Shown piece after piece: positions 3,495 to 18,162 of a stretch of 18,162 bases of DNA. The DNA lies in contig JANMQV010000090.1 of the NCBI GenBank assembly GCA_031370645.1, forward strand, positions 1-18,162, read 5' to 3'. Under the pieces are notes generated by a model. The model did not search any database, was not told where the DNA came from, and worked only from the letters and a program-made list of their open reading frames with translations. The position numbers and the translations under genes were made by a program. Positions within the stretch are counted from its first letter, which is position 1. Every line of letters starts with the position of its first letter. Origin of the DNA: Candidatus Eiseniibacteriota bacterium. Its GTDB lineage: Bacteria; Eisenbacteria; RBG-16-71-46; SZUA-252.

Positions 3495-4672
3495 GCGCTT
3501 CGAACGAGAAGGACCTCGCGCTCGCCCTATCGCTCGCCCGGGAGGCTGGTGCGCTCCTGAAGAAGAATTTCGGGGAAGCGCAGGAGATCGACTATAAGGG
3601 GCGGATCAACCTCGTGACGAGGATGGATCACGAGTCGGAGCGCCTCATTGTCGGCCGCATCCACGACGCACATCCGGGCGACGACGTCGTCGCCGAGGAG
3701 GGGCACGGCAAAAGTGGCGGCGCCGAGCGCGTCTGGATTGTCGATCCGCTCGACGGCACCGTGAACTACGCGCACGAATACCCGGTTTGGTCGGTTTCGA
3801 TCGCACTGCAGATTTCGGATCGGCTCGAGGTGGGCGTGGTCTATAACCCCCTCCTCGAGGAGATCTACGCCGGACGCCGGGGCGGCGGGGTCACGCTGAA
3901 CGGGAAGCCGAGACGCGTCACGACGTGCGACACGCTGGAGAAGGCAATGGTCGCGACGGGGTTTTCGTACGACCTGAGCGGCGACCACGAGAAGAACAAT
4001 CTGGGACCATTCGGGCGGTTCCTACTTCGCGCGCAGGCCGTGCGGCGCGCCGGTTCTGCCGCGCTCGCGATCGCCAAGGTGGCGGTGGGGCGGACGGATG
4101 GGTTCTGGGAGCGAAACCTCCAGCCCTGGGACATGGCCGCCGCGGCACTCCTGGTCGAGGAAGCGGGCGGGCGGCTCTCCGACTACCAAGGCGGCGACGG
4201 CTGGATGGAGGCAAAGCAACTGGTCGCGACAAACGGCCCACTCCATGATCAGGTACTCGCCGTCCTTCACGACGGACCTCCGGCGGATTGGGGGCTCCCT
4301 TCGTTAGCAGGGGATCCGCCGCCGCGCGACCAGATGATGGTCTATTTCGTCGGATATCTCTTCCTCGGTCCCAACCGGGATCTCTCGGAGGCGGAAGGGG
4401 ATCGGATTCAGCGCGAGCACCTTGCCTACAACCGGCGCCAGAGGGAACTCGAACACTACGTCCTCGTCGGCCCGTTCGCCGACGGAGGCGATCCGCGCGG
4501 GCAGATCGTGATGCGCGCGGAGTCGATCGAGGCGGCGAAGGCGATCGTCGCGGGCGATCCCGCCGTTCTTGCGGGAGTGCTTCGCGTGGAGCTTCGGCCG
4601 TGGTACGCCGCGAAGGGGATCACCGTCGTGCCGCCGACTCAGAGCGTGCCGGAAGAGTCCATCAAGTCGTAG
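3491..4672 (+). CDS. suhB: Inositol monophosphatase family protein (SuhB-like) with a C-terminal YciI/YCII domain
   Basis: IMPase motifs AEEG, WIVDPLDGTVNYAH, RRAGSAAL and PWDMAAA. After a Pro-rich linker comes a YCII-like domain (EHLAY...LVGPFADGGDPRG...GDPAVLAGVLRVELRPW). GTGA overlap with the upstream gene. Confidence 0.88.
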   Translation: MSASNEKDLALALSLAREAGALLKKNFGEAQEIDYKGRINLVTRMDHESERLIVGRIHDAHPGDDVVAEEGHGKSGGAERVWIVDPLDGTVNYAHEYPVWSVSIALQISDRLEVGVVYNPLLEEIYAGRRGGGVTLNGKPRRVTTCDTLEKAMVATGFSYDLSGDHEKNNLGPFGRFLLRAQAVRRAGSAALAIAKVAVGRTDGFWERNLQPWDMAAAALLVEEAGGRLSDYQGGDGWMEAKQLVATNGPLHDQVLAVLHDGPPADWGLPSLAGDPPPRDQMMVYFVGYLFLGPNRDLSEAEGDRIQREHLAYNRRQRELEHYVLVGPFADGGDPRGQIVMRAESIEAAKAIVAGDPAVLAGVLRVELRPWYAAKGITVVPPTQSVPEESIKS

Positions 4673-4682
4673 GGAGCGCTCG

Positions 4683-4862
4683 ATGACCGAGATGCGGTAC
4701 TACGTGATGGTCTTCCTCCGGACGGGTCCCATGCAGCCGACCGACGCCGAGGAGAAAAAGGCGCTTCAGATGGCGCACTTCGGAAACATGGAACGCTACT
4801 CGGCGAAGGGGATCGGAATCTTTCCAAGCACGGACTCGAACGAACCGGAAGGAGCGAATTGA
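4683..4862 (+). pseudogene. Short (59 aa) YCII-family paralog lacking the central ~55 residues
   Basis: GGGAG RBS before ATG 4683. MRYYVMVFLRTGP...AHFGNMER resembles a YCII N-terminus, and YSAKGIGIFPSTDS resembles the C-tail of the upstream YCII domain (YAAKGITVVPPTQS). GPF and DP motifs are absent. Confidence 0.6.
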
Positions 4863-5305
4863 GCGCGGCCGCCGTGAAATGTCGCGAGATGCGCGCCGCC
4901 GACGCACCGCGCGTCGCGGAGTTGGCCGGGGAGCTTGGCTATCCGTCGACGGCCGATCAGATCCTCGCGCGGAAGGCGGTGCTCGATCCGCAGGGGATGT
5001 CCGTGGTGTACGTCGCGGAGTCGGCCGACGGCGCGATCATGGGCTGGATCATCGTCTGCGAAATCTGTTCTTTGGAACTCGATCCGCACGCGGAAGTGAA
5101 GGGGCTGGTCGTGGCGGAGAGCGCGCGAAGTGGCGGAATCGGGGCCAGACTGATGGAAGTGGGAGAGGCCTGGGCTCGCGCGCGTGGACTTCGAGAAATG
5201 GTGCTCCGAAGCAACGTCATTCGCGACCGAGCCCACGCCTTCTACAAGCGAATCGGGTACGAGGAACAGAAACGGCAGGTCAAACTCAGAAAGCGCCTAT
5301 CCTGA
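4859..5305 (+). CDS. GNAT family N-acetyltransferase
   Basis: Acetyl-CoA motif LVVAESARSGGIGARLM and C-terminal NVIRDRAHAFYKRIGY. GAAGGAG RBS and TTGA overlap with the upstream ORF (alternative ATG at 4889). Confidence 0.9.
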   Translation: MSAAAVKCREMRAADAPRVAELAGELGYPSTADQILARKAVLDPQGMSVVYVAESADGAIMGWIIVCEICSLELDPHAEVKGLVVAESARSGGIGARLMEVGEAWARARGLREMVLRSNVIRDRAHAFYKRIGYEEQKRQVKLRKRLS

Positions 5306-5743
5306 GGCCGCTTCGCCGAGCCTAGCCACCTTTCGCAAGTCCTCCGCCCACCCCGCCGCATCTTCCTGCGGCTCGAACGAAAAAATCTCCGATACACGCT
5401 CCCCGACCACACGAACTCGGACTCGGCCCCCCTGGCGCCGGATCTCGACCATGCGCTGCGTACGCGAGGTCACTTCCAGGAGCACGCGGTCGTTTTGGTG
5501 GATGAGGAGCGACCCTTTGGTCACGAGGATCGACGCGAGCCGGTCCTTGTACCCCTGATCGTAGGGACCGGCGAGCCGCGTGTGGCGGACGATGACATTG
5601 TCCGCGCGGCGAATGATGCCTTCCGTCTCGAATCGTTGATTCCACTCGGGGGTGAGAGCGCTCGTGTCGCGGGCGCAGCCTCCGGCGCCCGCGACCGCCA
5701 GGACGCACCACGCGACAGCGACAACCAGCCGTGTGGTGCGCAT
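5297..5743 (-). CDS. Hypothetical lipoprotein (148 aa), possibly PH-like fold
   Basis: CAGGAGG RBS before ATG 5743. Signal peptide MRTTRLVVAVAWCVLAVAGAGG-C has a lipobox-like Cys. Beta-rich body ends in the helix EDAAGWAEDLRKV. Confidence 0.75.
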   Translation of the reverse strand: MRTTRLVVAVAWCVLAVAGAGGCARDTSALTPEWNQRFETEGIIRRADNVIVRHTRLAGPYDQGYKDRLASILVTKGSLLIHQNDRVLLEVTSRTQRMVEIRRQGGRVRVRVVGERVSEIFSFEPQEDAAGWAEDLRKVARLGEAASG

Positions 5744-5802
5744 GCCAACCTCCTGGATCGGTCGAGGGGGATGGCGGCGTTGCTTGGGCAAATTTGCCCG
5801 GC

Positions 5803-6303
5803 CTAGCCCCCCGTGACGGAAGCCATGCTGTCGGCACCAAGGGCTGCCGTCAAGAACTCGGCGCGGAGCGCTTCCATTTCCGCTTCGCCCGAAGCGGGAT
5901 CGAGTCGCCTCGTCAGACGCACCCACGCGAGGAGGGCTTTCGCCTCCTGCTTCGTGAATACCGAAAGGGCCGCCGCGGGAGTCTTGGAGCGGCCTTCCCA
6001 AACGACGGCGCACGCGTAGCGAAGGCACTGAGAGGAATTTTCCGGATACTTCGGGCGGATGGCCTGACCCAGTAGTCGCATGCTGCGCGCGAGCCAACCG
6101 TAACCTTCGTCCCGGCCACCGTTGATGCGAATCGCGGTCTGGAAGTGGGTCATCGCGGTTCGAAGTTTCTCCGTGTACTGCTCTGGTGATTCCGTCCTCG
6201 TCGCCTCGTCGACCAAGACGCGCCCGCGCGTCATGGCATCGTCCCACTCTTTCGTCCCCTCCTGTGCGAGGGCCAGCACCTCTTCGATCTTGTCACCTTG
6301 CAT
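5803..6303 (-). CDS. Hypothetical alpha-helical protein with a TPR-like repeat (166 aa)
   Basis: AAGGAG RBS before ATG 6303. The segment AMTHFQTAIRINGGRDEGYGWLARSMRLLG fits the TPR pattern. Confidence 0.72.
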   Translation of the reverse strand: MQGDKIEEVLALAQEGTKEWDDAMTRGRVLVDEATRTESPEQYTEKLRTAMTHFQTAIRINGGRDEGYGWLARSMRLLGQAIRPKYPENSSQCLRYACAVVWEGRSKTPAAALSVFTKQEAKALLAWVRLTRRLDPASGEAEMEALRAEFLTAALGADSMASVTGG

Positions 6304-6345
6304 GATGATCGCTCCTTGGGTGGTGGGTCGAGGTGACTGGAGAGA

Positions 6346-6361
6346 AGCAAGATCGGGGCCG
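6346..6361 (-). promoter_or_regulatory. Candidate sigma54 (-24/-12) promoter
   Basis: Minus strand CGGCCCCGATCTTGCT = GG-N10-GC with TTGCT at -12, 42 nt upstream of ATG 6303. Confidence 0.55.
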
Positions 6362-6523
6362 GGGTGGCGGGGCGGAGACCGAGTGGGCGAGGTGCCTCGG
6401 AGTGGGCTAAACCCTTGCGGGGCAGGGCGTCGCAGATCGCGACGGGGACTCGAAGTTGCAATGCCCGGCAATGTGAACGACGGGGCGCGCAAGGCTGCAC
6501 CGCAAGGAAGCGAAGGGGGCGAT

Positions 6524-7504
6524 TTAGGAGGTGGAGGATGCTTCTCGCGCTGCCAGGGCGCGGAGATGCTCCTCGTACTCCTCCACGAAGCGCCGCACCA
6601 CTTCCGCGGCGGGGATTACGTCGTGGATGAGGCCGCTCGATTGGCCAGCCTCGAGTTCACCCTCGGTGACGTCACCTTCCAGGATTCCGAGGCGCGCGTG
6701 TTTCACTCCATAGACTTCGGCTAGTTCTTCGCGCGTGGCGCCGCGCATTTCGGCTTCACGCACGCGATCGACCCACGGGTTCCGCAGTGCCCTGACCGGA
6801 GCGATCTTCTTCGCGAAGAGGGCTGTGGCGCCGTCCGAGGCTTCCACCACGGCGCGTTTGTAGTTTTCGTGCGCGCTCGACTCTGTCGTCGCGGCGAAAC
6901 GCGTCCCGACCGAAATCCCTTCGGCGCCGAGCGCCATGGCGGCTAGGAATTGTCGGCCATCGGCGATTCCGCCGGCCGCGACCACCGGGACTTTCACCGC
7001 ATCCACCAATTGCGGGATGAGGGAGAGGGTCGTCACTTCATCGATGCCGTTGTGACCGCCGGCTTCAAATCCTTCGCCGACGATGATGTCGACGCCGCAC
7101 GACTCGGCCTTCTTGCCATGCTTCACGCCGGGGACGACATGGATCCATGTGACGCCCGCGCGCTTGATTCGCTCCGCGAAGTTCGCGGGATTTCCGGCGC
7201 TCGAGACGATCACGTCGATACCGCCCGCCAGTGCGACCTCCAATAATTCCGCCGCGTCGCCTCGGAGGAGCGGCACGTTCACCGATAGCCGCCCCTTCGT
7301 CAGAGCCTTCGCCTTCGCGATCTGCTCGCGGAGCAACTCCTGCTTCATGGAGCCGGCGCCGATGCAGCCGAGAATGCCGGCCTCGGCGCAGGCGACGGCA
7401 AGGCGATAGCCGGAAGCCCAGACCATTCCCGCTTGGAGGATGGGGTAGCGGATGCCGAGGATTTCAGTGACGCGGGTTCGGAGTGATCCTGGCCCACTCG
7501 TCAC
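6524..7504 (-). CDS. fabK: FMN-dependent enoyl-ACP reductase II (FabK) / nitronate monooxygenase family protein
   Basis: LGIRYPILQAGMVWASG, GEGFEAGGHNG, PVVAAGGIADG and VGTRF motifs, resembling Bacteroidetes-type FabK. GTG start at 7504 overlaps the aroC stop (GTGA). Confidence 0.85.
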   Translation of the reverse strand: MTSGPGSLRTRVTEILGIRYPILQAGMVWASGYRLAVACAEAGILGCIGAGSMKQELLREQIAKAKALTKGRLSVNVPLLRGDAAELLEVALAGGIDVIVSSAGNPANFAERIKRAGVTWIHVVPGVKHGKKAESCGVDIIVGEGFEAGGHNGIDEVTTLSLIPQLVDAVKVPVVAAGGIADGRQFLAAMALGAEGISVGTRFAATTESSAHENYKRAVVEASDGATALFAKKIAPVRALRNPWVDRVREAEMRGATREELAEVYGVKHARLGILEGDVTEGELEAGQSSGLIHDVIPAAEVVRRFVEEYEEHLRALAAREASSTS

Positions 7505-8616
7505 GCGCGACCTTTGCCGGGCGCCCCGTCGGTGGGGGGCCACTTCAGCCCCGGATCGGGGCGCGTCGCTTCGACCGCGCGCTGACGAAGCATGTGATCC
7601 GCGAGCACGAGGCAGGTCATCGCCTCGGCGACGGGGACGACTCGGGGGCAGAGGCAGGGATCGTGGCGGCCGGTGATCGCGAAGTCGCGTTCGGCTCCCG
7701 TGCGATCGACTGTCTTCTGGGGTACCGCGATCGACGACGGTGGCTTCACCGCAATCCGCGCGACGATCGGCTGGCCGGTGGAGATGCCGCCGAGAATTCC
7801 GCCGGCGTGATTCGTTTCGAATCCTCGCGGCGTCATCCGGTCGTTCATCTCCGAGCCCTGGAATTTCGCGGAGCCGAATCCTTCGCCGATCTCGAATCCC
7901 TTCACCGCGCCGATCGACATCAATCCGTGCGCCAGCGTCGCGTCGAGTTTGTCGAAGATCGGATCGCCCCAACCGGCGGGAACGCCGGTCGCAACGATCT
8001 CCACGATGCCGCCGAGCGAATCGCCGCGCTCGCGCGCGGCGAGGATGGCGGCCTCCATCGCGACGGCTGCCTTCGGGTCGGGGGAGCGAACCAGGTTCGA
8101 CTCGGCCGCCGCCCAATCGCGCGCGGACGCGACGATGTCGCCGACCGCGACCGTGCCCGCCTGCACCACGACGCCGGTGCGGGCCAACAACGCTCTTGCC
8201 ACAGCACCTGCAGCGACGCGCGCGACCGTTTCGCGTCCCGAGGAGCGTCCGCTCCCGCGGTAGTCGCGCACCCCATACTTCGCGAGGTAAGTGTGATCGG
8301 CGTGGCCGGGGCGGAACAAATCCTTCAGGTTGGAATAATCCTGCGAGCGTGCGTCCACGCTACGAACGATCATCGCGATCGTGGCGCCGGTGGTGACGCC
8401 CTCGAAGAGCCCTGAGACGATTTCAACGGTGTCGGGTTCGCGGCGCTGCGTCGTGACCGCGCTCTGGCCGGGGCGCCGGCGGTCGAGATCGCGCTGCACC
8501 ATCGCCTGATCCAACGCCAGGCCGGGAGGGCAACCATCCAGGACGACGCCGACGGCGGGACCATGGCTCTCGCCGAACGTCGTCAGCGTGAGAATCTTGC
8601 CGAAGACGCTGCTCAC
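7501..8616 (-). CDS. aroC: Chorismate synthase
   Basis: TTFGESHG, RPGHAD, RGSGRSSGRET, GDSLGG, NHAGGILGGISTG and GRHDPC motifs. GTG start at 8616 overlaps the upstream stop (GTGA). Confidence 0.97.
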   Translation of the reverse strand: MSSVFGKILTLTTFGESHGPAVGVVLDGCPPGLALDQAMVQRDLDRRRPGQSAVTTQRREPDTVEIVSGLFEGVTTGATIAMIVRSVDARSQDYSNLKDLFRPGHADHTYLAKYGVRDYRGSGRSSGRETVARVAAGAVARALLARTGVVVQAGTVAVGDIVASARDWAAAESNLVRSPDPKAAVAMEAAILAARERGDSLGGIVEIVATGVPAGWGDPIFDKLDATLAHGLMSIGAVKGFEIGEGFGSAKFQGSEMNDRMTPRGFETNHAGGILGGISTGQPIVARIAVKPPSSIAVPQKTVDRTGAERDFAITGRHDPCLCPRVVPVAEAMTCLVLADHMLRQRAVEATRPDPGLKWPPTDGAPGKGRA

Positions 8617-9104
8617 CGGGAGTGCTTCTTCGGTTTCTTCATCTTCACGCTCTTCGGCGGCTTCGCTCCCTTGCGGCTCAGTTTCGAGCCCGCCTCGATC
8701 ACGTCGCCCGCCGTGGCGTAGGTGCTCTCGCGCCACGCGAGGTGGCGCCGCACCAACTGCTCGAGATTCCAGAGGTAGGTCGGCCGGATCTTCGCGCGCG
8801 CTCCCGGCACGATCGCCTTGATCTTGTTCCAGACAACCACGTGCTCGCCGGTCGAGTCGAAATAGAGATCCTCGTTCAGCACGCCGCGATTCACCATGCC
8901 CGCGACCATCTCCCAATACGAGGTGACCATCCGGAAGAAGCGATCGAACTCGGTGCCGGACAGATACTGAGCCTCGACTTCCTCCCACGACGTCGCCTTG
9001 AATTCGGAGAGCATCCACTGCCGCGCCTTTCGGAGTTCGGGATCGCGGCGAATTTCGTAGAGGCGGAGCACGAGCTCGGCGTCGGCGGCGGAAGGCTTCG
9101 ACAT
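8613..9104 (-). CDS. Conserved hypothetical protein (DUF4760-like) with a Lys-rich C-tail
   Basis: GGAGG RBS before ATG 9104. ADAELVLRLYEIRRDPELRKARQW...FRMVTSYWEMVAGMVNRG pattern. The family assignment is from recall and unverified. Confidence 0.75.
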   Translation of the reverse strand: MSKPSAADAELVLRLYEIRRDPELRKARQWMLSEFKATSWEEVEAQYLSGTEFDRFFRMVTSYWEMVAGMVNRGVLNEDLYFDSTGEHVVVWNKIKAIVPGARAKIRPTYLWNLEQLVRRHLAWRESTYATAGDVIEAGSKLSRKGAKPPKSVKMKKPKKHSR

Positions 9105-9143
9105 GGCGGGTTCCTCCGTGGATGGATGGTCGGTTCGGGGCCG

Positions 9144-9172
9144 ATTGTGGCGGGGGGATGAGACGTTGTCAA
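9144..9172 (-). promoter_or_regulatory. Sigma70-type promoter for the hypothetical-aroC-fabK operon
   Basis: Minus strand TTGACA (9172-9167), 17 nt spacer, CACAAT (9149-9144). Confidence 0.65.
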
Positions 9173-9195
9173 ACCACGGCGCGGCCGCGTACCCT
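9166..9195 (+). promoter_or_regulatory. Sigma70-type promoter for a probably leaderless rnhA
   Basis: TTGTCA (9166-9171), 18 nt spacer, TACCCT (9190-9195), 6 nt, ATG 9202. No SD sequence. Confidence 0.55.
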
Positions 9196-9201
9196 GCGTC
9201 C

Positions 9202-9621
9202 ATGCGCTATCGCGTTCACACCGACGGAGCCGCGCGCGGGAATCCCGGCCCCGCGGCCATTGGAATCGTGGTCCAGGACGACGCCGGTCACATCATTTAC
9301 GAGGCGAGCCGCTCGCTCGGAACGAAAACGAACAACGAGGCCGAGTATCTCGCGCTGATCGCGGCGCTCGAGTACCTGATGGAGTCGCGGATCGGCGAGG
9401 CCGACTTCTTCCTCGACAGCGAGCTGGTGGTGAAGCAACTGAACGGAGTCTATCGCGTGAAGGAGCCGCGGATGCAGAGCCTTCACGCCCGCGTGACGAT
9501 GCTCTTGAACGCCGTACCGAAGCACTCCTTCAAGCATGTCCGTCGCGCGGACAACGCCCGCGCCGATGCCCTCGCCAACGAGGCGCTCGATGCCGAGGCC
9601 GGGCCGACCCAGCCGGCCTAG
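9202..9621 (+). CDS. rnhA: Ribonuclease HI (short type lacking the basic protrusion)
   Basis: HTDGAARGNPGPAAIG, TNNEAEY, FLDSELVVKQLNG and HVRRADNARADALAN; acidic catalytic residues are present. Confidence 0.93.
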   Translation: MRYRVHTDGAARGNPGPAAIGIVVQDDAGHIIYEASRSLGTKTNNEAEYLALIAALEYLMESRIGEADFFLDSELVVKQLNGVYRVKEPRMQSLHARVTMLLNAVPKHSFKHVRRADNARADALANEALDAEAGPTQPA

Positions 9622-10268
9622 GGAGTCAGGCGCTCCACGAGTTCCGCGAGTTCCACCAAGTCTCGCACTCGCAGGTCCGCCGCACCCGGCCTCGCGTGCG
9701 GGCGCTCCACGAACACGCAGGTGAGCCCGAGCGTCTGGGCGGTGGCGAGGTCGTAGTCGGCGTAGGCTGAGACGTGCCACCACGCCGGGCCGAAGTCCAC
9801 GCCCACTTTCCGCGAGACGTAGCGCCAGACCTCCGGAGATGGCTTGTAGTAACGCGACTCCTCCGCGCAAATCCACGCGCTCAGCCGAAGCCCTAGCCCT
9901 GCTTGCGCCTGGTCGCCATGCTGGCGATCACTGTTGGTCATGGCGGCGCAGGGCGCGACGGCCATGAGCCGCCTCAATCCCTCCGCGGAGTCGGGGTAGG
10001 GCGGCCACGATCCCACCGACGCACCGATGGCATGAGCGGCAGTCGCCGGAAGACTCGCGACTTCCCACAAACTATCGGCGGTGATCTCGGCGTAGCGCTG
10101 AAATGCGCCTCCCTCGGCGCGAGCCTGCGCGTCGATGATCCGATCGAAGCTCCCGTCGTCCCACGCGCCGCCCGCCTCCTCGACCGCGCGGCGCATGCCG
10201 AGGCGCCAGTCGAGGACGGTGCCGAAGATGTCGAACGTCAGAAGCGATGGCCGCGCAACAGGCTGCAT
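9618..10268 (-). CDS. HAD-superfamily hydrolase (2-haloacid dehalogenase-like)
   Basis: Motif I TFDIFGTVLDW, motif II MTNSD, motif III YKPSP and motif IV WHVSAYADYD. The stop overlaps the rnhA stop in CTAG 9618-9621. Confidence 0.88.
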   Translation of the reverse strand: MQPVARPSLLTFDIFGTVLDWRLGMRRAVEEAGGAWDDGSFDRIIDAQARAEGGAFQRYAEITADSLWEVASLPATAAHAIGASVGSWPPYPDSAEGLRRLMAVAPCAAMTNSDRQHGDQAQAGLGLRLSAWICAEESRYYKPSPEVWRYVSRKVGVDFGPAWWHVSAYADYDLATAQTLGLTCVFVERPHARPGAADLRVRDLVELAELVERLTP

Positions 10269-10271
10269 CCC

Positions 10272-10303
10272 TTGATTCTTGGGTGTCCGGACCCTAAGAT
10301 CAA
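10272..10303. promoter_or_regulatory. Quasi-palindromic bidirectional promoter (rnpB on +, HAD gene on -)
   Basis: Plus strand: TTGATT(10272-77)-17-TAAGAT(10295-300). Minus strand: TTGATC(10303-298)-17-AAGAAT(10280-75)-6-ATG 10268. Confidence 0.6.
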
Positions 10304-10334
10304 CCCCGGCAACAAAGGCGGAATTCGATGACTT

Positions 10335-10697
<363 letters not shown>

Positions 10698-10745
10698 AGT
10701 CTCGAATTCGCCTCACTCTCTCCCGCGCGAGGAATCGTCCAGATC

Positions 10746-11669
10746 ATGACCGCCCCCGATCCGGTGCCGGCGCCGGCGCCAGCCGCGCCCGCGACGGGCG
10801 ACGCCAACGCTGCGCGCGCCGCCGTCCCCTCGATCACGCTCGGCCCCTACACGGTCCGATTCGTCTCCGGCGGCCGCTTTCGTCTCGACGGGGGGGCCAT
10901 GTTCGGCGTTGTGCCGAAGACGCTCTGGAATCGCGTGGCGCCGGCGGACGAGAAGAACCGCATTCGAATGGGAATGAACTGCCTTCTCATCGAGGGCAAC
11001 GGAAAGCGGGTTCTCGTCGACGCGGGATCGGGCACGAAGAACGACCCGAAATTCCGCGACATCTACGCCATCGAGCGCCCTGAGGGGTTGCTCGAGGAAC
11101 TCGCGTCGTGCGGCGTTGCCCCGGAGGGGATCGACACGGTGGCGCTGACGCATTTGCATTTCGATCACTGCGGCGGCGGCACCACGCGCGATCCCGACGG
11201 CTCGGTTCGCCCCACGTTCCCGAAGGCGCGATACCTCGCGCGCCGTCAGGAGTGGAACGACGCGCATCACGCGAACGAACGGAACCGCGCCTCTTATTTC
11301 CTCGAGAATTACGATCCGCTTGAGGCCTCGGGGCAATTGACGATCCACGACAACGACATCGAGATCCTCCCCGGCGTCTCCATGAGGTGCCTCCCGGGGC
11401 ACACTCTGGGGCACCAGGGGGTCTTTTTCGACCTGCCGTCGGGGCGGGCGCTCTACACCGTCGATCTGATCCCGACGGTGGCGCACCTACCCCTTCCGTA
11501 CATCATGGGTTACGACCTCTATCCCATGATGACGCTGGAGACGAAGCGTGCGATCCTGGCCGACGCCACCCGGGAGAACTGGCTTTTCCTCTTCGAACAC
11601 GATCCCGACACCTTCGCGGTGCGCGTGGCGGGGAGCGTGGAGAAGCCCGTTTCGGAGAAAGTGGCTTGA
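10746..11669 (+). CDS. Metallo-beta-lactamase-fold hydrolase (YtnP-like)
   Basis: FRLDGGAMFGVVPK, THLHFDHCGG metal motif, PGHTLGHQ, DLIPT, MGYD and FEHDP. Pro/Ala-rich N-terminal extension; GAGGA RBS. Confidence 0.92.
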   Translation: MTAPDPVPAPAPAAPATGDANAARAAVPSITLGPYTVRFVSGGRFRLDGGAMFGVVPKTLWNRVAPADEKNRIRMGMNCLLIEGNGKRVLVDAGSGTKNDPKFRDIYAIERPEGLLEELASCGVAPEGIDTVALTHLHFDHCGGGTTRDPDGSVRPTFPKARYLARRQEWNDAHHANERNRASYFLENYDPLEASGQLTIHDNDIEILPGVSMRCLPGHTLGHQGVFFDLPSGRALYTVDLIPTVAHLPLPYIMGYDLYPMMTLETKRAILADATRENWLFLFEHDPDTFAVRVAGSVEKPVSEKVA

Positions 11670-11695
11670 CAGGGGGAGGTGCAACTTCCTATCCT
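11666..11695 (+). promoter_or_regulatory. Sigma70-type promoter of the nuo operon
   Basis: TTGACA (11666-11671, overlapping the upstream TGA stop), 18 nt spacer, TATCCT (11690-11695). Confidence 0.6.
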
Positions 11696-11702
11696 GCCGC
11701 GA

Positions 11703-11722
11703 TTAGCACCTTTTTTCACGAA
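11703..11722. promoter_or_regulatory. Putative Rex-type operator
   Basis: TTAGCACCTTTTTTCACGAA (reverse complement TTCGTGAAAAAAGGTGCTAA): one good TCGTGAA half-site and one degenerate half-site, at the predicted TSS. Confidence 0.4.
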
Positions 11723-11775
11723 CTAGCGGCGGTCTGGTCGGCGGGCGATAAGCGCCCGGGGAGGCAAGGGAGACG

Positions 11776-12153
11776 GTGGGCCCGGTAGATCCCAATAGCG
11801 TCGCCGCGTTTATCCCCATTCTCATCATGGTGGTGGTGGCGACCGGCTTTGCCGGTTTCACCCTTTTCGCGTCGCATTTCCTCGGGACGCGGATCGACAG
11901 CGTGGCGAAATCGATGCCCTATGAGTGCGGCGTCACCCCGGTCGGCAACGCCCGCGAGCGCTTCAACACGCGCTTCTATCTCGTCGCCATGCTCTTCATC
12001 GTGTTCGACATCGAGACGGTCTTCCTCTACCCCTGGGCCGTCGTCTTCAAGCAGTTGAACGTCTTCGGCCTGATCGAGATGGGCATCTTCCTAGTGGTCC
12101 TCCTCATCGGCTTCTTCTGGGTCTGGGGAAAGGGAGCGCTCGAATGGGATTGA
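11776..12153 (+). CDS. nuoA: NADH-quinone oxidoreductase subunit A
   Basis: KSMPYECGVTP, RFYLVAMLFIVFDIETVFLYPWA and KGALEWD. AAGGGAG RBS before the GTG. Confidence 0.97.
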   Translation: MGPVDPNSVAAFIPILIMVVVATGFAGFTLFASHFLGTRIDSVAKSMPYECGVTPVGNARERFNTRFYLVAMLFIVFDIETVFLYPWAVVFKQLNVFGLIEMGIFLVVLLIGFFWVWGKGALEWD

Positions 12154-12674
12154 GACCCGAACCCGACCAGTTGGACGCTCTCACCGACGACCAGAAGATG
12201 GTCGTGGAGCGGCTTCGCGCGAAGTTCGGCGACGCGGTCCTCGATTCGCAGTCGTTCCGAAAGGAACTATCGATCTGGATCCGGAAAGACGCGCTCCTCG
12301 ACCTGCTCCGCTACGCCAAGGACGACCCGGAACTCCTCTGCGAGATGCTGACCGACGTCACGTCGGTCGACTACCTCGAGCAGCGCGGGCCCGACGAGCC
12401 GCGATATGAACTGATCCACAATCTCTACTCGCTCACCTTCAACCGCCGATTCCTCCTCAAGACGCCCGTTCGCGAGAACGAGACCGTTCCTTCCGCCGTG
12501 TCGGTCTGGAAGAGCGCGGACTATATGGAGCGGGAGGTCTACGACCTCATGGGGCTGGTGTTCGACGGGCATCCCTATCTGGAACGCATCCTGACGCCGG
12601 ACGGCTGGCTGGGGCATCCGCTTCGCAAGGATCACCCGACACGTACGGATCAATTCCCGAACGTCGAGAACTAA
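12144..12674 (+). CDS. nuoC: NADH-quinone oxidoreductase subunit C
   Basis: LTDVTSVDY and SAVSVWKSADYMEREVYDLMGLVFDGHPYLERILTPDGWLGHPLRKD. ATG 12144 lies inside the nuoA end with GGGAG upstream (alternative ATG at 12198). Confidence 0.93.
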   Translation: MGLRPEPDQLDALTDDQKMVVERLRAKFGDAVLDSQSFRKELSIWIRKDALLDLLRYAKDDPELLCEMLTDVTSVDYLEQRGPDEPRYELIHNLYSLTFNRRFLLKTPVRENETVPSAVSVWKSADYMEREVYDLMGLVFDGHPYLERILTPDGWLGHPLRKDHPTRTDQFPNVEN

Positions 12675-12680
12675 GACACC

Positions 12681-13145
12681 GTGCTATCCGCCCAAGCCCG
12701 CCACTCGATCGAAGCGCTGACGACGACGTACGAGACGAACCAGTCCGCGATCATTCCGGCCCTGCATATCGCCCAGGACGATCAGGGGTGGCTGAGCGAG
12801 GAGACGCAGCGCGAGGTGGCGGAACTTCTCGCGCTCACCGAACAGTCGGTGCGCGGCGTGGTGTCGTTCTACACCATGTTCTATCAGCGCCCGGTCGGCC
12901 GGCACGTCTTGCAGGTCTGCCGCAATCTGTCGTGTTGCGTGAAGGGCGGGCATCGCCTCCAGCAGCAGATCGAGGAGAAGCTGGGCATTCACGAAGGAGA
13001 GACGACCACGGACGGCCGCTTCACGCTGATGTCGGTCGAGTGCCTCGGTTCATGCGGCACCGCCCCCGTTTTGATGGTCAACGACGACTATCACGAAAAT
13101 CTGACGGCCCAGGATGTGGATCGTCTCCTAACGGAGCTCAAGTAG
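12681..13145 (+). CDS. nuoE: NADH-quinone oxidoreductase subunit E (2Fe-2S)
   Basis: SAIIPALHIAQDDQGWL, VVSFYTMF, CRNLSC and ECLGSCGTAP, giving a complete 2Fe-2S ligand set. Confidence 0.95.
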   Translation: MLSAQARHSIEALTTTYETNQSAIIPALHIAQDDQGWLSEETQREVAELLALTEQSVRGVVSFYTMFYQRPVGRHVLQVCRNLSCCVKGGHRLQQQIEEKLGIHEGETTTDGRFTLMSVECLGSCGTAPVLMVNDDYHENLTAQDVDRLLTELK

Positions 13146-13151
13146 CCGCCC

Positions 13152-14138
13152 GTGGATCTCGCCCTCTTCATCGAAGCGGTCATCAAAGTCCTCATCGTGC
13201 TTGGATTCACGCTGGTGGCCGTTCCGCTCATCGTTTGGATGGAGCGGAAGGTGCTGGGGCACATGCAGGACCGGATTGGCCCCGAGCGCGTCGGCCCCTT
13301 CGGGATTCTCCAAACGATCGCCGACGGGATGAAGCTCTTCATGAAGGAAGACCTCGTCCCCGCGCAGGCGGACAAGGCGGTCTACTTCCTCGCCCCGGCC
13401 ATCTCCATCATCACGGCGCTCGTCGCCATGACGGTCATTCCGTGGGGCGACACGTTCACCCTCTTCGGCCGGACAATCGGGCTCCACATCACCGACGTGA
13501 ACGTCGCCGTGCTCTTCCTCCTCGGCACCACGTCGATGGGGGTCTACGGCATCGTCCTCGGCGGCTGGGCCTCGAATTCGAAGTATCCGCTCCTCGGCGG
13601 CCTTCGCTCCTCGGCCCAGATGATCTCCTACGAATTGGCGCAGGGGATCGCGATCGTGCCGATCATCATGATCACCGGGAGCCTCTCGCTCGCGGAGATC
13701 GGGCGCGCGCAGGCGAAGATGTGGTTCGTCGTTCCACAGTTTTTCGGATTCCTGATCTTCCTCATCTGCTCCGTGGCGGAGACGAATCGCGCGCCCTTCG
13801 ACTTGGCCGAGGCCGAATCGGAGCTGGTAGCGGGGTTTCACACCGAGTTCTCGAGCATGAAGTTCGCGCTCTACTTCCTCGCCGAGTACGCGAACATGAT
13901 GGTCGTGTCGGGCGTGGCGATCACCTGCTTCCTCGGCGCCTGGTTCGGGCCGGTCTTTCCTGGCCCGGTCTGGTTCCTCATCAAACTGACGCTCTTCCTC
14001 TTCTTCTATATCTGGCTGCGGGCCACGTTTCCGCGGCTTCGCTACGACCAGCTGATGAGTTTCGGCTGGAAGGTCCTGCTGCCCGCGTCGCTTCTGAACA
14101 TGGCGGTGACGGCGGTCGTCCTGGTGTTGAAGGGATAG
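13152..14138 (+). CDS. nuoH: NADH-quinone oxidoreductase subunit H
   Basis: ERKVLGHMQDRIGP, AQMISYE, AETNRAPFDLAEAESELVAGFHTEFS and RATFPRLRYDQLM. Confidence 0.98.
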   Translation: MDLALFIEAVIKVLIVLGFTLVAVPLIVWMERKVLGHMQDRIGPERVGPFGILQTIADGMKLFMKEDLVPAQADKAVYFLAPAISIITALVAMTVIPWGDTFTLFGRTIGLHITDVNVAVLFLLGTTSMGVYGIVLGGWASNSKYPLLGGLRSSAQMISYELAQGIAIVPIIMITGSLSLAEIGRAQAKMWFVVPQFFGFLIFLICSVAETNRAPFDLAEAESELVAGFHTEFSSMKFALYFLAEYANMMVVSGVAITCFLGAWFGPVFPGPVWFLIKLTLFLFFYIWLRATFPRLRYDQLMSFGWKVLLPASLLNMAVTAVVLVLKG

Positions 14139-14142
14139 TCTG

Positions 14143-14661
14143 ATGGCCCTCGAGCCCATCCTGTTCGTCTTCTTCGCCACGGTCGCGATCCTGAGCGCGC
14201 TCGGCGTCATCTTTCATCGGAATCCGGTCCACTGCGCGCTCCTTCTGGTCGCCGTGCTTCTATCGTTGTCGGGTCTCTTCGTTCTCTTGAACGCGCAGTT
14301 CATCGCGGCGCTCCAGGTGATCGTCTACGCGGGCGCCATCATGGTGCTCTTCCTCTTCGTGCTCATGCTCCTTAACTTCCGCGGCGAGTCGAGTGTCCTC
14401 TCGCCCGGGGCCGCGAAGGGATTCGGATTCCTCTTCGCACTCCTCGTCCTGGTGGAACTCCTCTGGACGGCGCTCTCGCCGAACGGCGGGGAAGGCGGTG
14501 GGATGGCCCCGCCGGCGACGCTGCCGGCCGATTTCGGGTCGCCCGCGGCCATCGGACGAATCCTCTACACGACGTGGCTCTATCCGTTCGAGATCACCTC
14601 GATCCTGCTCCTCGTGGCGGTGATCGGCGCCGTGGTCTTGGCCAAGAGGAAGTTCGCCTGA
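14143..14661 (+). CDS. nuoJ: NADH-quinone oxidoreductase subunit J
   Basis: [34 protein letters not shown] and [21 protein letters not shown]. Confidence 0.97.
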
Positions 14662-14975
14662 TGCAGACGCTCGCCGTACCGCTCGTCGCCTACCAGATTC
14701 TGGCCGCGGTCCTCTTCACGATCGGGGTCGTGGGAGTGCTGGTGCGACGGAGCGCGCTCATCATTTTCATGTCGGTCGAACTGATGCTGAATGCCGTAAA
14801 TCTCTCGTTCGTGGCGTTCTCGCGGCAGCACGGCTCCATGGACGGCCACATCTTTGTCTTCTTCGTCATGGCGGTCGCCGCGGCGGAGGTGGCGATCGGG
14901 CTCGCGATCCTGGTCGCGATCTTCCGCAAGAAGGAAACCGCCAACGTGGACGAAGTCCACCTCTTGAAGGGTTAG
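14661..14975 (+). CDS. nuoK: NADH-quinone oxidoreductase subunit K
   Basis: [19 protein letters not shown] and [20 protein letters not shown] overlap with nuoJ. Confidence 0.97.
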
Positions 14976-14981
14976 GCAACG

Positions 14982-16937
14982 ATGTCCCTGAATCTGCTCT
15001 GGCTGGTGCCGGCGCTTCCGCTCTTCGGGGCCGTGATCAACGGTCTCGGCGCGGGGAAGTTGCCGCGGAAACTGGTCAGCGCGATCGGTGTCGGGTCGGT
15101 CGGCGCGGCGTTCGTCATCGCGCTCGGCTGCCTCCAGTCGCTCTTGAAACTCCCGGCCGAAGACCGCTTCTTCCTCCAGACGCTCTTCTCGTGGATCGAC
15201 TCGGGCGATTTCTCGGCCGCCATCCGGCTCGGGCTCGACCCGCTCTCCGCCGTCATGATGCTCGTGGTGACCGGTGTCGGCTTCCTGATCCACATCTACT
15301 CGACCGGCTACATGAGCCACGAGAAGGCGTACGGGCGCTACTTCGCCTACTTGAACCTCTTCACCTTCTGCATGTTGATGCTCGTCCTCGCCGACAACTT
15401 CCTCGTGATGTTCTTCGGCTGGGAGGGCGTCGGGCTCTGCTCGTACCTCTTGATCGGCTTCTGGTACCAGAAGCCCTCGGCCGCGGAGGCCGGGAAGAAG
15501 GCCTTCATCGTCAACCGAATCGGCGACTGGGGCTTCCTGATCGGTGTGTTCCTCATCTTCGTCACCTTCGGCACGCTCGACTTCGGCCGCGTCTTCGCCG
15601 AGGCGCCGGGGCAACTCGCCATGGGCGGAGCGCTCGCCACGGCCATCGCCCTCTTCCTCTTCGTCGGAGCGACCGGTAAGAGCGCGCAGATCCCGCTCTA
15701 CGTCTGGCTCCCCGACGCCATGGAGGGCCCGACGCCGGTCTCGGCGCTCATCCACGCCGCCACGATGGTCACGGCGGGCGTCTACATGATCGCGCGCTGC
15801 CACATCCTCTTCACGCTCGCCCCGACGGCGCTCCTGGTGGTCGCCATCGTGGGCGCCGCGACGGCGCTCTTCGCGGCGACGATCGGGTTGGTGCAGAAGG
15901 ACATCAAGCGGGTGCTCGCCTATTCCACCGTGAGCCAGCTCGGTTACATGTTCCTCGCCATGGGTGTCTCCGCCTTCACCGCGGGGATCTTCCATCTCAT
16001 GACGCACGCTTTCTTCAAGGCGCTCCTCTTCCTCGGCGCCGGAAGCGTGATTCACGCGCTCTCCGGGGAGCAGGACATGGACCGGATGGGGGGGCTGAGG
16101 AAGCACCTCCCGAAGACGCATCTCACGATGCTCATCGCGACGCTTGCCATCGCCGGTGTGTTCCCGTTCGCGGGGTTCTTCTCGAAGGACGAGATTCTCT
16201 GGAAGGCGTTCAACTTCCCGCACGGCGGCCCGATCCTCTGGGCCTGCGGCGTGATCGGCGCCTTCATGACGGCCTTCTACATGTTCCGCCTCTACTTCAT
16301 GACCTTTCACGGAGCGGAGCGGCTGACACCCGAGGCGAAGCATCATCTGCATGAGTCGCCGAATAGCATGACGCTTCCGCTCATGCTCCTCGCGGTTCTG
16401 AGCGCCATCGGGGGATTCATCCAGATCCCGCTCCTGGCCGGGGGGCAGCGGCTCGACGCGTTCCTGGAGCCGGTCTTCGCCGATCTCGGGCACGTGGGTG
16501 GGGGACTGGCGGAGGGCGCCGCCGCGGGGCACGGCGCGGCCGTCCACAGTTCCGTGCCCGAACTCACGCTCATGGTGATCTCTCTCGCGATCGCGCTCCT
16601 CGGCATCTTCGTGGCGCATCGCTTCTACGTGAAGGACCCGCAAGCGCCGCATCGCCTCGCGGAACGGGCGCGCGGTCTCTACGAGCTCCTCTGGAACAAG
16701 TGGTGGGTGGACGAGATCTATGACGCGCGGATCGTTCAGCCGATTGTCCAGCTTTCGAATCGGCTCTGGAAAAACGTCGACGTCGCCGTCGTGGACGCCG
16801 CGGTGAACGGTGTGGCGAAGAAGGTGGAACAGGGTTCCGGCTGGCTTCGATTGGCGCAGACCGGTTACGTGCAGCTCTACGCGCTCATCATCACCCTGGG
16901 GATGGTGGTCGTGTTCGGCTACCTGGCGCTCCGATGA
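14982..16937 (+). CDS. nuoL: NADH-quinone oxidoreductase subunit L
   Basis: [51 protein letters not shown] and [14 protein letters not shown]. The lateral helix ends QTGYVQLYA. Confidence 0.98.
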
Positions 16938-18162
16938 CCCCTACGATCTCGATCCTCGGCATTCCGCTCCTGACACTGGTGACCTTCCTGCCGACGGTGG
17001 GGGCGCTCCTGCTCCTCTTCGTGCCGTCGTCGAAGGTGGCGCTCGTGCGGGGCTTCGCCTTCGGCGTCACGGTCCTGACCTTCCTCGCCTCCTTGCCGCT
17101 CTTCACCATGTTCCACTTTGGGCAGCGCGGCATGCAGTTCGTGGAGAAGGCGCCGTGGGTGCCGAATCTCGGCATCCAGTATTACCTCGGCGTGGACGGC
17201 GTGAGCGCACTCCTCATTCTCATGACGACGCTCCTCTCGGCCGTCGCCGTTCTGTCGTCGTTCACGGCGATCACGGACAAGGTGAAGCCCTACATGGCGC
17301 TCCTCCTCGTCCTCGAGACGGGGATGATCGGCGTCTTCGCGGCGCTCGACCTGGTCCTCTTCTACATGTTCTGGGAAGTCGTCCTCATTCCCATGTACCT
17401 CCTGATCGGCGTCTGGGGCGGCCAGCGCCGCGTCTACGCCGCCGTGAAGTTCATTCTCTACACGGTGGTCGGAAGCCTTCTCATGCTGGTCGGCATCCTC
17501 TACCTCTACTTCGCCTATCACGCCGCCTTCGGCGAATACACGTTCGACCTGATCCGGCTCTACGACACGCCGCTCGCGCGCTCGGCGCAGCTCTGGCTCT
17601 TCGGCGCCTTCGCGCTGGCGTTCGCCATCAAGGTGCCGATGTTCCCGTTCCACACCTGGCTCCCCGACGCGCACGTGGAAGCCCCCACGGCCGGCTCCGT
17701 GATCCTCGCCGGCGTTCTCCTCAAGATGGGGACGTACGGATTCTTCCGCTTCGCCATGCCGCTCTTCCCGGAGGGCGCGCTCGCCTTCACGCCGTGGCTG
17801 ATCGCCCTCTCGGTGATCGGGATCATCTATGGGGCTTTGGTCGCGATGGTGCAGACCGACGTGAAGAAGTTGGTCGCCTACTCCTCGGTGAGCCACCTCG
17901 GCTTCGTCATGCTCGGCCTCTTCGCGCTCAACATGCAGGGGGTGCAGGGAAGCGTCCTCCAGATGATCAACCACGGCCTCTCGACCGGCGCCCTTTTCCT
18001 CGCGGTCGGAATCCTCTACGAGCGCCGGCACACGCGTGAGATCAAGGAATTCGGCGGGATCACGGAGATCATGCCGTGGTTCGCCGCGCTCTTCCTGATC
18101 GTCACGCTCTCGAGCCTCGGGCTTCCGGGGTTGAACGGCTTCGTGGGCGAGTTCCTGATCCT
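16934..18162 (+). CDS. nuoM: NADH-quinone oxidoreductase subunit M (3' end truncated by the window)
   Basis: Translated by hand from ATG 16934 (ATGA overlap): [13 protein letters not shown]..., [57 protein letters not shown] and [12 protein letters not shown]. Open to the window end. Confidence 0.96.

Follow-up and report, generated by a model that had tools for sequence, protein, structure and literature searches.

How can a bacterium whose nuo operon skips nuoB, nuoD, nuoF, nuoG and nuoI make complex I, and is the product an ordinary complex I at all? The question is raised by the window analyzed here, an entire contig (C108) of 18,162 bases from an uncultured member of Candidatus Eisenbacteria whose source is metagenome bins only; its genome is a 95% complete bin of 247 contigs, with a median contig of about 5.4 kb. 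The original prediction offered three explanations: (a) operon duplication with reciprocal loss that left a complementary B-D-F-G-I locus elsewhere, (b) a membrane arm that shares or swaps the catalytic module of another complex or (c) an unusual complex. We consider it very probable that the genome encodes one ordinary enzyme, that its genes are divided between two complementary loci and that this layout is a trait of the lineage.

The operon in the window and its complement

Assignment of the open reading frames by Pfam and NCBIfam models gives nuoA-C-E-H-J-K-L-M on the forward strand, the content and order originally proposed, and NuoB, D, F, G and I were not found among the frames of the window. 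The series opens with nuoA (11776..12153, GTG start, 125 aa; PF00507, E = 2.9e-37) and nuoC (12144..12674; PF00329, 1.5e-38; TIGR01961, 125.3 bits against a cut-off of 122.45). The latter has two possible start codons, an in-frame ATG at 12144 (176 aa) and a TTG at 12150 (174 aa), and the best solved relative of its product is the NuoC chain 8qby_C (E = 2.3e-26). The 2Fe-2S subunit gene nuoE (12681..13145, 154 aa; PF01257, 6.6e-54; TIGR01958, 174 bits, cut-off 142) encodes a protein that aligns with NDUFV2 (5xtb_O, E = 5.9e-36) over 146 residues. Then come nuoH (13152..14138, 328 aa; PF00146, 3.8e-123), nuoJ (14143..14661, 172 aa; PF00499, 1.6e-41), nuoK (14658..14975, 105 aa; PF00420, 6.7e-30; NF004320, 129 bits, cut-off 57), nuoL (14982..16937, 651 aa; TIGR01974, 800 bits; NF005141, 803 bits, cut-off 556) and the first 409 codons of nuoM (16934..18162; TIGR01972, 543 bits), which is open at its 3' end where the contig stops. 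As to the earlier statement that motifs are intact, family-model matches run end to end for all eight proteins, and the residue-level alignment, which is that of NuoE, includes the C-x4-C and C-x3-C cysteine pairs.

The junctions are as tight as had been claimed. The nuoA stop codon (TGA, 12151-12153) lies within nuoC, giving an overlap of 10 nt from the ATG or 4 nt from the TTG; gaps of 6 nt separate nuoC from nuoE and nuoE from nuoH, and 4 nt separate nuoH from nuoJ. Overlaps of 4 nt join nuoJ to nuoK, where the ATG at 14658 overlaps the nuoJ stop, and nuoL to nuoM. The A/C, C/E, E/H and H/J junctions leave no space for gene remnants.

Because the window is a whole contig, we sought the region 3' of nuoM on other contigs. 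The last 440 nt recur at the end of contig C236 with 97.7% identity, short of a perfect match, and C236 completes nuoM and then carries nuoN (C236:3872-5254, reverse strand). No nuo gene follows nuoN on C236, where the next frame is an unrelated one of 410 aa. This search, which had been suggested earlier, thus recovers only the rest of nuoM and nuoN, with B, D, F, G and I absent.

A genome-wide search, also suggested earlier, places the five genes together on contig C131, in the order nuoI-ZIP transporter-nuoB-D-F-G; the genome has one NuoD and one NuoB, and they are neighbors there. NuoI, B, D and F score above NCBIfam cut-offs (for NuoF, which matches PF01512 and PF10589, TIGR01959 gives 620 bits against 559). 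NuoG is short (542 aa) and falls just below its cut-off (TIGR01973, 462 bits against 470); it has Fer2_4, NADH-G_4Fe-4S_3 and Fer4_Nqo3 domains. By tblastn of all subunits against the window's genome, 14 of 14 Nuo subunits are present in one full copy each. Option (a) was therefore right that a locus with all five genes, each single-copy, lies elsewhere, but its order is not strictly B-D-F-G-I, because nuoI leads the cluster and is followed by a metal-transporter gene.

Other partitions and the origin of the interleaving

Five types of partition were seen within the phylum; the comparison included a set of 20 regions from 16 genomes and 13 families, hand-picked for long contigs and so non-random. 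The window's family is here called f1, and f2, f3, f6, f9, f10 and f14-16 are other families of the phylum. Family f3 has A-C-E-F-H-J..N and B-D-G-I; f14, f15 and f16 have A-E-H-J..N and B-C-D-F-G-I; genome G084 of f2 has A-H-J..N and B-D-E-F-G-I; and f2 and f10 have A..H-J..N and a lone nuoI. A closed Bdellovibrionota chromosome carries A-C-E-F-H-J-K-L-M-N and D-G-I..B. These partitions are complementary and colinear, as in the window's family, and the second-locus gene sets of the phylum are nested: I (f2 and f10), B,D,G,I (f3), B,D,F,G,I (f1), B,C,D,F,G,I (f14-16) and B,D,E,F,G,I (G084).

We give about even credence to an origin by reciprocal loss, in which a nuo operon and a second one, be it a duplicate or a co-resident operon, would have lost complementary genes; in the window's family, nuoI and the ZIP gene would additionally have come to stand before nuoB. 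Reciprocal loss would explain why canonical order is kept at both loci. We infer it, together with duplication, from the colinear and exactly complementary partitions of other families; in the window's own family the trees are no proof, giving no sign of two origins and placing both loci in the same broad clade, with deep nodes unresolved. The B+D+G+I tree sets this family outside the Bdellovibrionota/f3 group. Two points count against reciprocal loss: the position of nuoI-ZIP before nuoB breaks strict colinearity and requires an extra rearrangement, and several partitions in one phylum require repeated duplications or long-lived redundancy.

Tree evidence for a putative second-operon origin comes from other families. 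The B, D, G and I genes of f14-16 group with the complex I clade of the second operons of f6 and f9, apart from the main clade (support 99/99), and forcing them into the main clade was rejected (p-AU 8.6e-06) in a test whose group had been picked with the tree already in view. For the membrane-arm data of the same families, the alternative placement was not rejected (p-AU 0.13), and the incongruence is one-sided.

Stepwise relocation, by which single genes or small blocks moved into a growing second locus with no duplicate or second operon, is a possible but doubtful alternative. The nested gene sets look like a progressive series, a second origin is unseen in the f1 trees, and both the lone nuoI of f2 and f10 and the separation of nuoI from B-D-F-G in f1 indicate that a single gene is able to sit alone. 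However, relocation would require exact canonical insertions of C between B and D, F between D and G, and E between D and F. Such exact independent transpositions are unlikely, and colinearity holds in all examined second loci except for nuoI of f1. The clean junctions of 4-6 nt at the first locus would likewise call for four precise excisions, and in f14-16 the B, D, G and I genes fall in a different clade.

Building on reciprocal loss, a wider reading that we put forward only tentatively as a whole is that the window represents one state of a recurrent, so far undescribed process, in which two nuo operons (duplicates or isozymes) would pass through reciprocal loss to a chimeric complex I encoded by two colinear, exactly complementary loci. 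The outcome would show a bias, with the membrane arm never broken up and the 4Fe-4S wire subunits (I, B and G, then D, F, C and E) collected at a second locus that has promoters of its own. Were this reading true, the iron-costly half of the enzyme could be separately controlled or supplied, and arms from different complex I lineages would be interchangeable in nature. If the second-locus genes of some families truly come from another complex I clade, peripheral and membrane arms could be exchanged between isozymes, which would bear on the modular evolution of complex I.

Probably one enzyme from two loci

The five genes on C131 and the single copy of all 14 subunits point to one ordinary complex I encoded by two complementary, interleaved loci. 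The 14-subunit set is complete, with A, C, E, H, J, K, L and M in the window, N on C236 and I, B, D, F and G on C131. The window would supply NuoC, NuoE and, but for NuoN of contig C236, the membrane arm (NuoA, H, J, K, L and M), and the second locus would supply the FMN/NADH site in NuoF, the 4Fe-4S chain in NuoF, G, I and B and the quinone-site subunit NuoD. Judged by their domains, all parts of the N-module are present: FMN/NADH and 4Fe-4S domains in NuoF, a 2Fe-2S site in NuoE and N-terminal Fe-S domains in NuoG. The predicted function is that of the complex I class: NADH oxidation, quinone reduction and proton pumping by an L-shaped complex. At least two and probably three transcription units (from nuoA, nuoI and nuoB) would be involved, and their products would assemble post-translationally into one complex I.

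Separate control of the two loci is plausible because conserved promoter-like sites stand before nuoA, nuoI and nuoB, those 5' of nuoI and nuoB being conserved across relatives of the window's family. The candidate before nuoA is sigma-70-like (TTGACA-18-TATCCT, 11666..11695, forward strand, about 80 nt 5' of the gene) and matches the consensus at 10 of 12 positions. It is the only such site in 11400-18162, a count not above chance (shuffle mean 0.8), so its position is suggestive only. A search for a Fur-box-like site found none.

With its two loci on different contigs, the set is not a single-operon NUO14; it corresponds to a 'split' NUO14, complete and divided into two sub-clusters, with nuoI-ZIP making a third if set apart from nuoB-D-F-G. 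It is also not the 11-subunit complex, as the original prediction rightly held. The operon resembles NUO11, which has no NuoE, F or G, in having no nuoF or nuoG, but in NUO11 the genes B, C, D and I are retained and E is missing, whereas the window's operon has E without B, D and I, and F and G lie elsewhere in the genome. Elsewhere in the phylum, other families do have a true 11-gene operon as a second system (L150, L153, L157 and L161).

The likeness to the canonical one-operon complex I (nuoA-N or nqo; E. coli, Thermus thermophilus and Paracoccus) is close: all 14 core subunits occur once each and cover their family models over the full length, each locus preserves the relative gene order, and the closest solved structures are chains of complex I. 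What differs is that the window's family alternates between loci (A|B|C|D|E|FG|H|I|J-N) and has a ZIP gene between nuoI and nuoB, and that NuoG of the window's genome is short. Cyanobacterial and plastid NDH-1 has no NuoE, F or G and has extra subunits of its own, and its gene groups are blocks of neighbors, not an every-other-gene partition. NDH-1 is similar in that several transcription units together yield one membrane complex. The NDH-1 genes fall into several syntenic groups (PMC4758237).

The closest parallels are the 'split' NUO13/NUO14 systems of Bdellovibrio and other deltaproteobacteria, whose operon is divided into sub-clusters according to Degli Esposti 2015 (PMC4758237). Earlier caution that split nuo loci exist elsewhere was thus well placed; our literature search found no paper on the exact partition of the window's family. 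The closed Bdellovibrionota chromosome described above has the same kind of interleaved, complementary split, and the window's family differs from it in having also moved nuoF out, placed nuoI before nuoB and gained the ZIP gene.

Options (b) and (c) would make the membrane arm with NuoC and NuoE a distinct complex, fed by an electron-input module other than NuoB/D/F/G/I, and this is very improbable. The nuoC and nuoE genes do stand apart from those of their structural partners NuoD and NuoF, and many genomes of the phylum have two or three NuoH homologues, which makes module mixing conceivable. Against this, the quinone-reducing site of complex I requires NuoB, D and H together, and a second NuoB, D or H was not found in the window's genome. 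Both options go unsupported: NuoB, D, F, G and I each occur once in the genome and are typical complex I members; indeed, all 14 subunits are typical of the family and single-copy, and the complement is exact.

The enzyme thus looks ordinary and the mechanism of complex I is unchanged; what we describe is a gene-order curiosity on operon splitting, no new enzyme, and its value lies in genome evolution and annotation. The exactly complementary, colinear series in one phylum neatly illustrates, from nature, how a 14-gene operon whose products form an obligate complex can be divided, presumably with function kept. It agrees with an E. coli experiment (by Oppermann, 2022) in which gene order was reportedly not essential for complex I assembly. 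Pipelines that expect complex I in one cluster would call the window's family and similar lineages incomplete or "complex-I-like"; one survey method calls complex I from one gene cluster (PMC12361115).

Conservation within the family

Mis-assembly does not account for the split layout, which characterizes the lineage. A comparison of gene order in relatives, proposed with the original prediction, found the same two-locus layout family-wide. The order A-C-E-H is present at 7 of 7 NuoE loci of at least 71% identity, all from independent public records. A NuoH match was obtained in 24 other genomes of the window's GTDB family: 23 have A-C-E-H-J-K-L, the remaining one has H-J-K-L clipped by a contig end, and deviating orders number 0 of 24. 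Among NuoD loci of at least 79% identity, the full I-ZIP-B-D-F-G is found at 18 of 31 and contiguous parts clipped by contig ends at the other 13, with none deviating.

An origin of this gene order in faulty assembly or binning, as the fragmented metagenome bin with its many short contigs, the end of the window inside nuoM and the imperfect overlap with the next contig might suggest, is next to impossible given the same order and tight junctions in independent assemblies (23 other family genomes and 7 public records), the recurrence of the second locus at 31 loci and a closed family genome (G054) with both loci on its single contig of 3.1 Mb. There, NuoH lies at 1.2895 Mb on the forward strand and NuoD at 2.1936 Mb on the reverse strand, so that the two nuo loci are about 0.9 Mb apart on opposite strands. 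The second locus of the window's family also holds the ZIP metal transporter gene.

Two complementary loci for one complex I

The genome that carries the window is a bin of 247 contigs and 3.0 Mb with an estimated completeness of 95%, and the window is the whole of its contig C108. Pfam and NCBIfam assignments identify eight co-oriented nuo genes from position 11776 to the window end: nuoA (11776–12153), nuoC (from 12144 or 12150 to 12674), nuoE (12681–13145), nuoH (13152–14138), nuoJ (14143–14661), nuoK (14658–14975), nuoL (14982–16937) and nuoM (16934–18160), whose 3' end is open. nuoA and nuoC overlap by 10 nt if the latter starts at ATG 12144 and by 4 nt if it starts at TTG 12150, and the gaps that follow are 6 nt (nuoC–nuoE), 6 nt (nuoE–nuoH) and 4 nt (nuoH–nuoJ). 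These assignments and measurements bear out the original prediction of a tightly packed nuoA-C-E-H-J-K-L-M run. NuoB, NuoD, NuoF, NuoG and NuoI are absent from the window, and the junctions leave no space for remnants. The retained NuoE aligns over its full length to NDUFV2 and bacterial NuoE chains, both cysteine pairs included, and NuoC aligns to solved NuoC chains. The region 5' of the nuo genes (1–11669) holds unrelated genes, for two ABC exporters, an inositol monophosphatase–YCII fusion, a GNAT protein, a nitronate monooxygenase-like protein, chorismate synthase, a DUF4760 protein, a HAD hydrolase and an MBL-fold hydrolase.

The five absent genes lie together on another contig of the same genome, C131. 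A whole-genome search returned one match each for the NuoD and NuoB families, adjacent to each other, with NuoI 1 kb upstream. The cluster, in coordinates of the fetched locus L003, runs nuoI (6405–6860), a ZIP-family metal transporter gene (6887–7657, equivalent to G000:C131:12886-13656; PF02535, E 9.8e-24), nuoB (7782–8312), nuoD (8323–9540), nuoF (9543–10829) and nuoG (10840–12468), and it is flanked by genes for a sigma-54 activator and an adenosine deaminase. NuoI, NuoB, NuoD and NuoF score above their NCBIfam cut-offs; NuoG, short at 542 aa, reaches 462 bits against TIGR01973, just under the cut-off of 470. Its Fe-S domains are present and its molybdopterin-like domain is partial, and the short length is conserved in the window's GTDB family (f1).

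By tblastn, each of the 14 subunits has one full copy in the genome, and the extra matches are only the expected weak cross-matches among NuoL, NuoM and NuoN. Single full copies, distributed over C108 and its continuation C236 on the one hand and C131 on the other, mean that one complete complex I is encoded at two exactly complementary loci. The apparently missing catalytic core thus has an ordinary explanation, namely five genes at a second locus, and the suggestion that a complementary nuoB-D-F-G-I locus would be found elsewhere was right in substance.

The first locus continues on contig C236, the end of which matches the last 440 nt of the window (17723–18162) at 97.7% identity. C236 carries the end of nuoM, then nuoN overlapping the nuoM stop, then an unrelated 410-aa frame, so the five genes do not follow nuoN. 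The nuoM–nuoN adjacency recurs in relatives with longer contigs (L017, L019 and L020). The assembly break within nuoM coincides with this imperfect overlap, and strain variation in the sample is its likely cause. A 2M-type complex I, which a second NuoM-like piece on C236 might have indicated, was rejected, as that piece is the same gene as the window's. On the reverse strand of C236, the translated NuoM has a low-complexity C-terminal tail of ~60–70 residues after its conserved domain, rich in Pro, Ser, Asp and Glu; M–N spacing in relatives, 360–480 nt past the aligned part, suggests such a tail there too.

Partitions across the family and phylum

This every-other-gene partition, one of several complementary ones within the phylum, is fixed in the whole of family f1. 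All seven NuoE loci at 71–90% identity, among 19 fetched, have the order A-C-E-H-(J-K-L-M-N); the remaining 12, at 46–49% identity, belong to other lineages and have different orders. A NuoH search of a sample of 120 phylum genomes matched 24 of the 25 other f1 genomes, G017 being the one without a match to the query (the tally includes one unpublished genome, G015, on which our claims do not depend). Within 1.5 kb either side of NuoH, 23 of these 24 show A-C-E-H-J-K-L and the 24th shows H-J-K-L, cut by the contig start, with no deviations. The second locus is equally stable: among 31 loci with NuoD of at least 79% identity, 18 carry the full I-ZIP-B-D-F-G, and the remaining 13, truncated where their contigs end, have contiguous parts of it, again with no deviations. 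In G054, a single-contig f1 genome, a distance of 0.9 Mb separates NuoH (1.2895 Mb, plus strand) from NuoD (2.1936 Mb, minus strand). The layout is no artefact.

Several further observations concern this family. The ZIP gene begins 26 nt after nuoI, between nuoI and nuoB, and keeps this position in all close relatives with contig coverage (26 loci with ZIP and nuoB together); its product matches ZupT weakly, at 65 bits against a cut-off of 252, and the second loci examined in other families lack a ZIP gene. Two f1 genomes contain a weak NuoD-like stretch, at 26–27% identity, within a ~1000-aa open frame (G054:C1:3090122-3090949 and G115:C11:1070396-1071229), a counterpart of which was not found in the window's genome by a PF00346 search. 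A third, G073, has on a separate contig a second NuoH with 74% identity to the window's (G073:C119:6310-7284), which may come from a second strain in the bin or represent a genuine duplication. The nearest public loci have titles naming Candidatus Eisenbacteria, along with a few near-identical records under other phylum labels. The nuo loci of several public bins (L016/L035, L020/L040, L039, L042, L043, L045, L051 and L055) are 79–90% identical to Eisenbacteria ones and have the same order, under the labels Acidobacteriota, Bacteroidota, Hyphomicrobiales, Limnocylindrales, Latescibacterota, Omnitrophota, Dormiibacterota and Binatia; the labels of these bins look inconsistent.

Beyond f1, we surveyed 20 NuoH regions; they come from 16 genomes that represent 13 other families of the phylum and were selected because their contigs are long. 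NuoD or NuoI regions were added for nine of them. For the primary complex I, three f2 genomes and f10 have A-B-C-D-E-F-G-H-J..N with a lone nuoI as the second locus; f3 has A-C-E-F-H-J..N with B-D-G-I, and f4, known here from its first locus alone, shares that of f3; f14, f15 and f16 have A-E-H-J..N with B-C-D-F-G-I. The window's family, with A-C-E-H-J..N and I-ZIP-B-D-F-G, belongs to the same series. Each pair of loci examined is exactly complementary, and canonical order is kept at both, with nuoI in f1 as the sole exception. Of the partitions seen, the single-contig f2 genome G084 (L146 and L179) has the most extreme, with A-H-J..N and B-D-E-F-G-I. Its D, F and G frames are in several pieces, which could reflect sequencing indels or decay; it gave no NuoD match at E 1e-30, and NuoC was not detected with the query used. 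One f8 genome has E-F-G-H-I-J..N, and second systems in the phylum include canonical 14-gene and 11-gene operons.

Other phyla offer related arrangements. Leptospira (L093–L112, including L. interrogans, L108) and Vicinamibacterales and Solibacteraceae (L023–L032) have A-B-C-D-E-F-H-J-K-L-M-N, in which the F–H and H–J junctions are too tight to hold nuoG or nuoI. A Binatia locus reads A-C-D-E-H-J..N, and a closed Bdellovibrionota chromosome has A-C-E-F-H-J..N together with D-G-I..B.

Oppermann and colleagues reportedly found in 2022 that gene order is not essential for assembly of E. coli complex I. One survey clusters Nuo matches by distance and states that split and single-cluster complex I are mixed in most clades, with no description of the partitions in the part available (PMC12361115); a second source defines 'split' operons and names Bdellovibrio (PMC4758237). 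Terms for split or scattered loci do not occur in Spero 2015 (PMC4453560), and passages of PMC3578206 and PMC3879981 have no bearing on the partition. Searches of the literature on Eisenbacteria complex I, on nuo gene order and splits, and on nuo duplication or reciprocal loss found neither the partition nor the complementary series, and those on nuoG or nuoI 'elsewhere in the genome' found no description of the partition. Both the every-other-gene partition and the series appear to be undescribed, and the remaining interest lies in the evolutionary pattern of nuo partitions.

Origin of the interleaved layout

We favour reciprocal loss between two operon copies, at about an even chance of being right, because exact complementarity and colinearity at both loci arise from it automatically. 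Many genomes of the phylum have two or three NuoH homologues, so the starting material for such loss exists. Stepwise, gene-by-gene relocation is the rival route to the same layout and seems to us rather unlikely: each gene would have to land in its own canonical slot, and every excision would have to leave a clean 4–6 nt junction.

Phylogenetic trees lend partial support to reciprocal loss. In the B+D+G+I tree, with a finished bootstrap, the f14–f16 genes group with a clade of f6 and f9 second operons, Elusimicrobia and spirochaetes (100/100, 100/97 and 99/99). A constraint that places them in the main clade is rejected (p-AU 8.6e-06, for a group picked after the tree was seen), which makes the evidence from these four subunits strong. 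In the membrane-arm tree, from a quick search, they fall with the main clade (SH-aLRT 91 and 98), and the reverse constraint is not rejected (p-AU 0.13). The pattern is suggestive of a complex assembled from two operon lineages, one represented by the B-C-D-F-G-I regions L164, L165 and L166 (G096, G061 and G082, respectively) and the other by the A-E-H-J..N regions L159, L160 and L162.

For f1 we built trees of the concatenated membrane arm, of B+D+G+I and of NuoF, NuoE and NuoC singly. Separate origins for its two loci were not upheld: no tree separates them, and both lie in the same broad clade, with deep nodes unsettled. The closest neighbours of f1 in the NuoF tree are a Vicinamibacterales row and an unclassified 'S139' row (91/93 and 95/83), a grouping that we do not take as evidence of transfer.

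Putative promoters and the idea of iron control

The idea of iron control has as its basis gene content and the ZIP neighbour only. No Fur-box-like site was found upstream of nuoI, nuoB or nuoA, the best having 9/19 matches to an E. coli consensus; the chance level is 12 sites with 11/19 matches in the 20-kb locus, and Fur-type control has no support.

Promoter scans by themselves performed at chance level, with one site per region versus 0.6–0.8 expected. A TTGACA-18-TATCCT site lies upstream of nuoA (11666–11695). Alignment of 24 relatives' sequences reveals a conserved promoter-like TTGACC-N18-TATCGT/TATACT that follows closely on the sigma-54 activator gene and precedes nuoI, and alignment of 30 sequences reveals a conserved TTGAC...CTGCTAGGCT block directly 3' of the ZIP stop and before nuoB, which the consensus scan did not list. 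Because promoter-like sites are conserved, transcription of the complex I genes probably starts at three promoters.
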